64,000 nt of DNA, from positions 76,492-140,491 of the forward strand of contig JAPLXG010000006.1 of the NCBI GenBank assembly GCA_026396175.1. The letters are read 5' to 3'. The position numbers and the translations under genes were made by a program. This DNA is from Candidatus Moraniibacteriota bacterium (GTDB lineage Bacteria; Patescibacteriota; Minisyncoccia; Moranbacterales; UBA2206). Below, piece after piece: positions 45,579 through 46,063 of the stretch; the first letter of the stretch is position 1; every line of letters starts with the position of its first letter. Below the pieces are notes generated by a model that saw only the letters and a list, made by a program, of their open reading frames with translations, made no database searches and was not told the DNA's origin.

Positions 45579-46063
45579 GATTCTCTACGAATTACGAATT
45601 TGTACGAATGTACGAAAATAAATATAAAGTTGAAAAAGATATAATTTACCCTCAAGAAGTTTTTGAGCTTGTGGGTTTTATGTATGACGTTTGGAATAAG
45701 CTCGGTTATGGTCACAAGGAGAGTTTCTACGAAAAAGCAGTTGCTGAATTATTTAGGAAGAACGGCAAAGAATTCAAAGAGCAACTTAGGTGCAAAGTAA
45801 AAGTAGGTGAAAAAGATTTAGGATTATATGTTTTTGATTTCGTTTATGAAGAAAAAATAGTTGTTGAATTGAAGCAGGGAGACATTTTTTCCAAGCAAAA
45901 TATCAATCAGATCTATGCCTACCTAAAAGCGACTGGCTTAAAGCTAGGCTTGCTTGTGAATTTTACAAGAAAAGGTGTTAAATTTAAGAGAATCATTAAT
46001 ATAAAATAAATTTATTAGAATTAGAAGTTCGTACATTCGTACAAATTCGTAATTCGTAGAAAA
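45579..46063. mobile_element. Candidate insertion cassette: GxxExxY gene bounded by 34-bp inverted repeats of family A (CTCTACGAATTACGAATTTGTACGAATGTACGAA / TTCGTACATTCGTACAAATTCGTAATTCGTAGAA)
   Basis: Right arm 46031-46063 is reverse complement (33/34) of left arm 45583-45616; cassette splits rpsG from fusA. Confidence 0.45.
45608..46009 (+). CDS. GxxExxY family protein (PD-(D/E)xK-like small protein)
   Basis: Motif LGYGHKESFYEKAV (G-x-x-E-x-x-Y); 133 aa typical for family. Confidence 0.7.
   Translation: MYENKYKVEKDIIYPQEVFELVGFMYDVWNKLGYGHKESFYEKAVAELFRKNGKEFKEQLRCKVKVGEKDLGLYVFDFVYEEKIVVELKQGDIFSKQNINQIYAYLKATGLKLGLLVNFTRKGVKFKRIINIK

Follow-up and report, generated by a model that had tools for sequence, protein, structure and literature searches.

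REPINs (hairpin-forming doublets of repetitive extragenic palindromic, or REP, sequences) and the genes of REP-associated tyrosine transposases (RAYTs) make up systems in which an enzyme gene lies between inverted cognate repeats, gene-less doublets are scattered, target-site duplications are absent, and persistence over the long term is largely vertical. A different arrangement is known from Coxiella, where a 428-nt intervening sequence of the 23S rRNA has terminal repeats forming a 28-bp stem that RNase III cuts, and where tandem GACAGAT heptamers precede its open reading frame (ORF) (PMC4990558). Here we describe a small cassette in the genome of a Candidatus Moraniibacteriota bacterium (Moranbacteria; GenBank assembly GCA_026396175.1), located in a 64,000-nt stretch of contig JAPLXG010000006.1 (positions 76,492 to 140,491) that we call the window and to whose first letter all coordinates refer. 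The cassette spans 45581-46063, with rpsG and fusA on either side, and consists of a gene for a 133-aa GxxExxY protein flanked by two inverted arms of four TACGAA motifs each. The gene and its two arms form one unit, which has moved both between sites and between lineages.

The left arm sets in 3 nt past the rpsG stop codon, and the start codon of the GxxExxY gene falls within the last motif of this arm (GAATGTACGAA, giving M-Y-E). The first base of the right arm lies 19 nt past the GxxExxY stop codon and its last base 4 nt ahead of the fusA ATG (Table 1). The arms are 411 nt apart and complementary at 35 of 36 positions, so that terminal inverted repeats are present. The original prediction, made by a model from the sequence of the window, had given this repeat as 34 bp with 33 of 34 positions matching; it is real and slightly longer, and the predicted interruption of rpsG-fusA by a 133-aa GxxExxY ORF is confirmed by the ORF call together with matches to PF13366 and TIGR04256. 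The 31-nt core of the arm occurs exactly twice in the window (0 expected, 100 shuffles), where no other site resembles it at up to 3 mismatches, and TACGAA is found 89 times against an expected 29 +/- 5.

The protein matches PF13366 (PDDEXK_3) with E 4.5e-25 and 88.7 bits (cut-off 22) and TIGR04256 (GxxExxY) with E 6.5e-26 and 91 bits (cut-off 35), and is a member of both families by their curated cut-offs. Across an alignment of 28 homologues that are 32-94% identical to the query, the residues E38 (the GxxExxY glutamate), D77, E87, K89, Q101, and Y105 are invariant. RecB-family nucleases show the motif pattern D...ExK plus QxxxY. The predicted fold of the GxxExxY protein is Cas4-like, and the alpha-beta-beta-beta-alpha-beta core, D...(D/E)xK, and QxxxY that define RecB/Cas4-like PD-(D/E)xK enzymes are all present. 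The earlier label of PD-(D/E)xK-like is thereby borne out, and the 133-aa protein is predicted to be a minimal RecB/Cas4-like PD-(D/E)xK nuclease with its active-site pattern intact. PDDEXK_3 is the sole domain detected, transposase and recombinase domains (DDE, HUH, serine, or tyrosine) being absent. The family counts 27,695 clusters at 50% identity (E <= 1e-3). Because about 40 of its top 150 representatives are tandem double domains of 250-277 aa (P0100, P0102, P0103, and others), a dimeric working unit is suggested for the single-domain proteins. A sequence search of the PDB returned no solved relatives, and no relatives were found on viral contigs. The PADLOC (defence) and PHROGs (phage) libraries gave no match for the protein, which leaves a defence-system or phage reading without support. 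The searchable literature on GxxExxY, PDDEXK_3, and TIGR04256 holds incidental mentions only and gives PDDEXK_3 as 'unknown', in agreement with the earlier remark that these proteins have no established function; a survey of rRNA insertions in bacteria of the Candidate Phyla Radiation does not mention the family.

We then looked at the gene in other genomes by an alignment-based scan with one genome per species, which gave 448 relatives, and 80 loci were kept. All genomes are metagenome-assembled, and the 80 loci, reached via one peptide pattern, represent a sub-branch (34-81% identity) of the 27,695-cluster family rather than the whole. Homologues of 70-94% identity at three different loci carry the same kind of arms, namely 94% identical ones at rpsG/fusA (L001 and L002), 71-79% identical ones between the small- and large-subunit genes of NiFe hydrogenase (L003, L004, and L012), and 72% identical ones between a DsbA-like gene and POR-gamma (L006 and L011). 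Their arms are 32-49 nt long and 78-100% complementary, and hug the ORF. At least 59 of the 80 loci have a flanking inverted repeat with a score of 14 or more, the arms being arrays of 2-4 short motifs, and the offset between arm and ORF is small in most of the 80. When 358 ORFs of 90-200 aa from these loci were taken as a control, 46 reached this score, and they comprised 36 of the examined GxxExxY genes, one other GxxExxY gene, four 23S_rRNA_IVP genes, and five host genes lying between palindromes; host genes so placed in other genomes include rpsK, rplN, and a response regulator. Inspecting the flanks of other GxxExxY genes had been proposed as a check on the original prediction, and it came out in its favour, with inverted arms at these 59 or more relatives from several phyla. 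TACGAA is 45-fold enriched in the flanks of the 63 Patescibacteria-like loci. For the 17 loci of other phyla (Desulfobacteraceae, Acidobacteriota, Anaerolineae, Planctomycetota, Victivallales, Fusobacteria, and Bacteroidales), the enrichment in the flanks is 24-fold for CACGAA and 22-fold for ACGAAT, and two spirochaete loci have other arm motifs. Gene-less CACGAAT palindromes stand beside the gene in L086, and further arm arrays of the same motif in L081 and L083.

Several lines of evidence point to movement. The closest remaining relatives provide the empty rpsG-fusA junction that was also proposed as a check: it measures 113 nt and has no arms in L094, it is 1 nt long in L097, and L098 lacks the cassette as well. 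The GxxExxY copies cluster by lineage and not by site: the rpsG-site copies of the window and L001 share 77-84% identity with hydrogenase-site copies (L003, L014, L015, and L016), as against 66-68% with the copy that L020 has at its rpsG site, and the L020 copy groups with the hydrogenase-site copies of L018, L019, L021, and L022. In a protein-guided codon alignment of L003 and L015, the proportion of synonymous differences (pS) is 0.41 for the cassette (synonymous divergence, dS, 0.6), whereas the flanking hydrogenase genes are saturated, at 0.77 and 0.78; in other pairs the gap between cassette and flanks is smaller but has the same direction. L006 and L008 contain a decayed copy, consisting of the truncated 5' part of a further GxxExxY gene and a duplicated left arm; L011, whose protein is identical to that of L006/L008, has neither. 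Presence or absence at a conserved junction combined with a history discordant with the flanks, as expected of a homing endonuclease gene, is thus observed. The arms on homologues at three loci, the empty junctions, and the clustering by lineage uphold the earlier idea of an element that moves as a unit. Its description of the gene-bearing copy as the autonomous form fared otherwise. Target-site duplications of 4 nt or more are found in none of 35 well-defined copies (3 nt in only one), and copies within a genome are old paralogues of 47-67% identity, near-identical ones not being found; therefore, classical transposition with an autonomous master copy does not fit.

The 80 loci comprise 61 distinct neighbour pairs. 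Two sites recur, one between the hydrogenase subunit genes in 8 loci and one immediately ahead of fusA in 10, the latter from diverse Patescibacteria. Relative to both neighbours, the orientation is '++' in 57 cases and '--' in 0. Median gaps to the neighbours are only 44 and 41 nt, so that the arms fill the spacer. No sigma-70-like site was found on the sense strand upstream of the ORF, and the cassettes are presumably transcribed by read-through. The most conserved operons of reduced genomes (rpsL-rpsG-fusA-tuf and S10/spc) are colonised, apparently without harm. Between the window and L001, the ratio of nonsynonymous to synonymous divergence (dN/dS) is 0.028/0.75 (about 0.04) for the GxxExxY gene, 0.017/0.89 for rpsG, and 0.017/0.73 for fusA. 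At this dS of 0.75, all 64 of 64 positions of the arm core are identical while adjoining spacer bases differ, and hence the arms are constrained and not neutral filler. Both gene and arms are under strong purifying selection.

RNA folding of the 506-nt region predicts a terminal stem of 33 bp (minimum free energy -124 kcal/mol, z = -5.2) that also appears in the centroid structure. Selection for such a stem was assessed from 203 arm mismatches, which revealed no excess of G:U-type (38) over A:C-type (31) changes (p = 0.47); the remaining 134 cannot pair, and going through the list of arms by eye places most of them in the stretches that separate the motifs. From phylum to phylum, the ACGAA(T) core persists where proteins are 35% identical. 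Because a G:U excess is lacking and the core is so conserved, the arm motifs are most likely protein-recognition sites rather than mere stem, and the RNA stem is likely an additional property of the arms.

Arms of this kind occur throughout the window, where 15 of them align to the consensus TCTCTACGAATTACGAATTnnnTACGAATATACGAA with a four-motif layout. The gene-less palindromes of the original prediction exist at all three sites (3748-3863, 52771-52888, and 61725-61847), as do its two half-elements, and we found additional copies in the form of a TACAAA palindrome, seven one-armed units, and a reversed copy (Table 1). That these elements have the same arm sequence as the cassette was accurate with respect to the common layout and consensus but not with respect to identity, since the 31-mer finds no match in them at up to 3 mismatches. 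The arms of the gene-bearing copy share a G derived from the ATG, where both arms of all gene-less copies have A, and their mutual match of 35/36 is far closer than the match of either to any other copy. Generic intergenic repeats had been named as a finding that would speak against the element; spacer copies are indeed common, but the gene-bearing arms match each other best. The one-armed units (80-105 nt) consist of a GC hairpin (GCGCGC-TACGAA-CGCGC), an A-run, and four TTCGTA motifs spaced by 8, 11, and 8, end 8-12 nt ahead of the next ATG, and fill nearly every spacer from rplB to rplX. Having a single arm, they cannot form a long stem, and they may be part of the translation start region or relics of cassettes. 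The two ORFs around the reversed copy are taken to be rpoB and rpoC by size and position alone. The loops of the palindromes (3785-3826, 52807-52852, 61765-61807, and 38595-38637) have only chance matches of 8-12 nt to 17 gene-bearing elements. As they share nothing with the gene interior, an origin of the palindromes by deletion is not supported, and the earlier view of them as derivatives resembling miniature inverted-repeat transposable elements (MITEs) was not sustained.

Table 1. Coordinates in the window of the cassette, its host genes, and further members of the arm family.
Feature	Position	Strand	Details
rpsG (ribosomal protein S7), upstream host gene	45111..45578	+	ORF call; PF00177 in syntenic locus L001
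Left arm, 36 nt	45581..45616	+	Four TACGAA motifs starting at 45586, 45593, 45603, 45611
GxxExxY / PDDEXK_3 gene, 133 aa	45608..46009	+	ORF call; Pfam and TIGRFAM profiles
Right arm, 36 nt	46028..46063	-	Reverse complement of left arm (35/36)
fusA (EF-G), downstream host gene	46068..48155	+	ORF call
Gene-less palindrome, TACTAA/TACGAA mixed variant	3723..3863	.	Arms 3748-3784 and 3827-3863, 86% complementary, 42-nt loop; partial arm 3723-3745 in front
Gene-less palindrome, TACAAA variant	38554..38678	.	Arms 41 nt, 85% complementary
Gene-less palindrome, rpsJ/rplC	52771..52920	.	Arms 52771-52806 and 52853-52888, 89% complementary, 46-nt loop; third partial arm 52896-52920
Gene-less palindrome, rplR/rpsE	61725..61862	.	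Arms 61725-61764 and 61808-61847, 88% complementary, 43-nt loop; partial extra arm
Solo left-type arm (half element), directly 3' of stop codon	7477..7512	+	
Solo arm (half element)	21545..21600	+	Split by nested 19/20-nt GC palindrome at 21559-21577 within TACGAA motif
One-armed unit, reverse-oriented copy, between two ~1,150-1,200-aa ORFs	31405..31460	+	
Seven one-armed units, S10/spc spacers	55608-55710, 56060-56142, 56729-56812, 57472-57553, 57975-58081, 58552-58633, 59005-59087	+	

Taking these results together, we propose a homing-like nuclease cassette whose arms are the recognition sites of its own nuclease, a reading to which we give an even chance of being correct. That the GxxExxY protein acts on the arms is suggested by their co-occurrence and by the conservation of the motifs. 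In this model, the nuclease, probably as a dimer, would recognize the (T/C)ACGAA(T) motifs and break DNA at or beside the arms, whether in a cruciform, in a hairpin, or in a palindrome that is empty or lacks the gene. The recombination machinery of the host would then copy the cassette from an occupied copy, with the arms (plus flanks) as portable homology, and spread would proceed by homing or gene conversion instead of cut-and-paste transposition. Targets or relics of this system would be seen in the gene-less palindromes and the one-armed units, which would stand to the cassette as REPINs stand to RAYT genes. In the operon transcript, pairing of the arms would close a stem of ~33 bp around the ORF. 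RNase III probably cuts this stem, and an essential operon could thereby tolerate the insertion. We advance more tentatively, and consider possible though not probable, the wider proposal that GxxExxY proteins are dedicated nucleases of unrecognised cross-phylum mobile cassettes with inverted (T/C)ACGAA(T) arrays, which would spread by nuclease-triggered copying into arm-bearing operon sites, seed gene-less palindromes, and form the protein-operon counterpart of the 23S rRNA intervening sequences. If true, it would provide the first concrete mechanism for the movement of elements of the intervening-sequence type. GxxExxY/PDDEXK_3, a large orphan family, gains a concrete candidate DNA (or RNA) ligand and biological role, and a 130-aa nuclease with sequence specificity for a simple repeated motif could serve as a laboratory tool.

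A number of observations weigh against the homing-like model. The literature lists the function of the family as 'unknown', and the loci sampled form one peptide-pattern sub-branch of it, not the whole. Inverted repeat-array arms also enclose non-nuclease ORFs (four 23S_rRNA_IVP and one glyoxalase-like), so that the arm architecture does not need a GxxExxY nuclease, and in the Moranbacteria genome of the window both one-armed units and generic copies in spacers are frequent. The lower pS of the cassette is clear-cut in one pair only (L003/L015) and modest elsewhere. Copies within a genome are old and divergent, some positions have long been retained (the hydrogenase site in 8 genomes, the site ahead of fusA in 10), and the dN/dS of the gene is as low as that of ribosomal genes; given this low ratio and the long-retained positions, a domesticated or host-useful gene fits as well as a selfish one.

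Among the alternatives, the cassette could operate at the RNA level only, with arms that exist for a transcript stem, either cut by RNase III or controlling translation of the ORF and the downstream gene; the protein would then be an ordinary cellular nuclease, for example, of repair or RNA processing, and relocation would be due to general recombination or another trans-acting factor. We hold this to be rather unlikely. In its favour, the stem is strongly predicted, and co-orientation with the host genes is strict, at 57 to 0. The ORF start codon in the left arm and the fusA ATG 4 nt past the right arm would both lie in or next to the stem, and the outer ends of arms are purine-rich just ahead of downstream start codons (GTAGAGA, GTAAGGA, and GTAGGG). 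Strong purifying selection, long-retained positions, and similar arms around other ORF families also agree with this explanation, as does the precedent of the Coxiella intervening sequence with its heptamer repeats and RNase III cleavage (PMC4990558). However, a stem needs complementarity and not a conserved sequence, yet ACGAA(T) persists from phylum to phylum. Many spacer positions do not pair, and G:U mismatches show no excess (38 vs 31). Moreover, the one-armed units cannot form the stem and nevertheless look alike by eye (not quantified), and it would be left unexplained why a nuclease gene carries this motif.

In another alternative, the TACGAA arms would be host spacer repeats with a GxxExxY gene merely caught between two of them. 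The 14 or more further arm copies in the window, including one-armed units ahead of seven ribosomal-protein genes, and the host genes between palindromes in other genomes (rpsK, rplN, and the response regulator) speak for such a coincidence; nevertheless, we consider it very improbable and already close to refuted. The same arms accompany homologues in 61 neighbourhoods, and they keep close to the ORF ends, overlapping the start codon and beginning 19 nt past the stop in the window and with small offsets at most loci. In addition, few of the control ORFs other than GxxExxY genes have high-scoring repeats in their flanks, the association also exists in phyla that have no such generic repeats, and the cassette's own arms, at 35/36 and with their common ATG-derived G, stand far above any other copy. 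Very improbable too is a classical insertion sequence, in which GxxExxY would be a cut-and-paste transposase and the gene-less palindromes would be internal-deletion derivatives (MITEs) mobilised in trans. The ends of Tn7 and Mu contain multiple sub-terminal motifs, as do the terminal inverted repeats here, the gene-less copies share arms with the cassette, and L006 has a decayed copy beside an intact one. Such an element would nevertheless have to move without target-site duplications (35 well-defined copies) and with a 133-aa nuclease core that has no DDE, HUH, or recombinase domain and no obvious capacity for strand transfer. Near-identical copies within a genome were not found, the palindrome loops are unrelated to the gene interior, and the orientation is strictly tied to host transcription.

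Other small insertions and palindromes were noted in the course of the analysis. At the rpsG-fusA junction, other Patescibacteria have small palindromes, a glyoxalase-like ORF in different inverted repeat-array arms (L107, 2938-3430), or a DUF1653 ORF (L096, 477-911), and the site is a hot spot of small-cassette insertion. The str operon of the window is interrupted a second time between fusA and tuf, by a 628-aa ORF without a Pfam match (48527-50413) and a 94-aa ORF (50562-50846), an arrangement that recurs on Logan contig L174. Logan contigs of rpsG and fusA that end inside the arms were dismissed as a sign of cassette polymorphism, because an assembler break is expected at a 33-nt inverted repeat. 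Genes for 23S_rRNA_IVP (four-helix bundle, PF05635) near GxxExxY genes are also found within inverted heptamer arrays (TTAGTAT, TTAGGG, and TTGTTAC) in L038 (3958-4336), L053 (1449-1809), L057 (1680-2058), and L084 (minus-strand ORF), and the motif-array arm design seems to be common to two unrelated families of small ORFs. In Desulfobacteraceae and Acidobacteriota (L086, 2806-2964 and 5026-5926; upstream flanks of L087 and L088), a complete arm-loop-arm hairpin is followed by the GxxExxY ORF and a third arm. The third arm places the ORF between direct repeats of the right arm, and recombination between these would leave a gene-less palindrome.

The 19/20-nt GC palindrome CTGCCTACCGGCAGGCAGG occurs six times in the window (10134, 21559, 31377, 42634, 55627, and 59997). 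Four of these copies stand exactly 3' of (C/T)TAC inside a TACGAA motif, and one breaks a spacer unit whose six paralogues are unbroken. It looks like a target-specific mini-insertion, and its placement is reminiscent of IS200/IS605-type insertion, which occurs 3' of TTAC. A second palindrome family, with arms CCCGCACCAATT/AATTGGTGCGGG and the common loop TTCACGGAATCGCCTGCGGCTTAGTT, is found at 44407-44535 and 53043-53152, just upstream of rpsL and of rplC, and related arms enclose 285 nt at 11949-12233. This family has no Rfam match and could be a structured leader or a small RNA. After rplO, at 63211-63801, perfect 20-nt inverted arms (TATAAAAAATTAGAATTGGG) surround two small ORFs (63256-63447 and 63508-63735); the left arm is repeated internally ahead of the second, and the 75-aa ORF has no Pfam match.

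Finally, we compared the cassette with known systems. Insertion sequence/MITE pairs resemble it in their terminal inverted repeats (35/36 in the cassette) and in short gene-less copies that share the ends, whereas the cassette lacks a known transposase family and target-site duplications, its copies are not near-identical, and those with and without the gene have no internal sequence in common. Cas4/RecB nucleases differ from the 133-aa GxxExxY protein, which has no Fe-S cluster cysteines, CRISPR context, helicase partner, or PADLOC match. Free-standing homing endonuclease genes (T4 seg/mob, and the PD-(D/E)xK enzyme I-Ssp6803I) are likewise small nuclease genes between conserved genes, with presence or absence among relatives, the same junction used in distant lineages, and a copy younger than its flanks. 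Unlike the cassette, they lack terminal inverted repeats and dispersed gene-less partner repeats; GxxExxY is not among the recognised homing endonuclease families, and cleavage of the empty site by the cassette is predicted only.

In REPIN-RAYT systems, as in the cassette, a gene is flanked by inverted cognate repeats that are also dispersed without the gene (in the window and L086, with arm arrays in L081 and L083). The RAYT enzyme is an HUH/Y1 (IS200/IS605-like) transposase, whereas the cassette encodes PDDEXK_3 only; there is typically one RAYT gene per genome, in contrast to several divergent cassette copies; and the REPIN-RAYT repeat is a single GC-rich hairpin, in contrast to arms that are arrays of 3-4 motifs. 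The 23S rRNA intervening sequences (S23p/23S_rRNA_IVP; Coxiella and Leptospira; PMC4990558) agree with the cassette in their size of about 430-490 nt, in terminal repeats that form a stem of ~28-33 bp around an ORF of ~120-130 aa, and in their co-directional position within a heavily transcribed unit. Tandem heptamers make up the arms or leader in both, GACAGAT in Coxiella and TACGAA(T) in the cassette. These sequences sit in helix 25 or 45 of the 23S rRNA and encode a four-helix bundle, whereas the cassette lies in the intergenic spacer of a protein operon and encodes a PD-(D/E)xK nuclease. Rfam detected only two tRNAs in the window and no rRNA near 40 related loci scanned, and the cassettes are thus not literal rRNA intervening sequences. 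The cassette connects the puzzle of the origin of these intervening sequences with the palindromic repeats that occupy spacers in small Patescibacteria genomes and with REPIN-like systems. In architecture it is closest to the 23S rRNA intervening sequences and to REPIN-RAYT and matches neither, being set apart from the former by host site and ORF family and from the latter by enzyme family, and the package of gene plus arms appears to be a selfish gene cassette of a kind not previously described.

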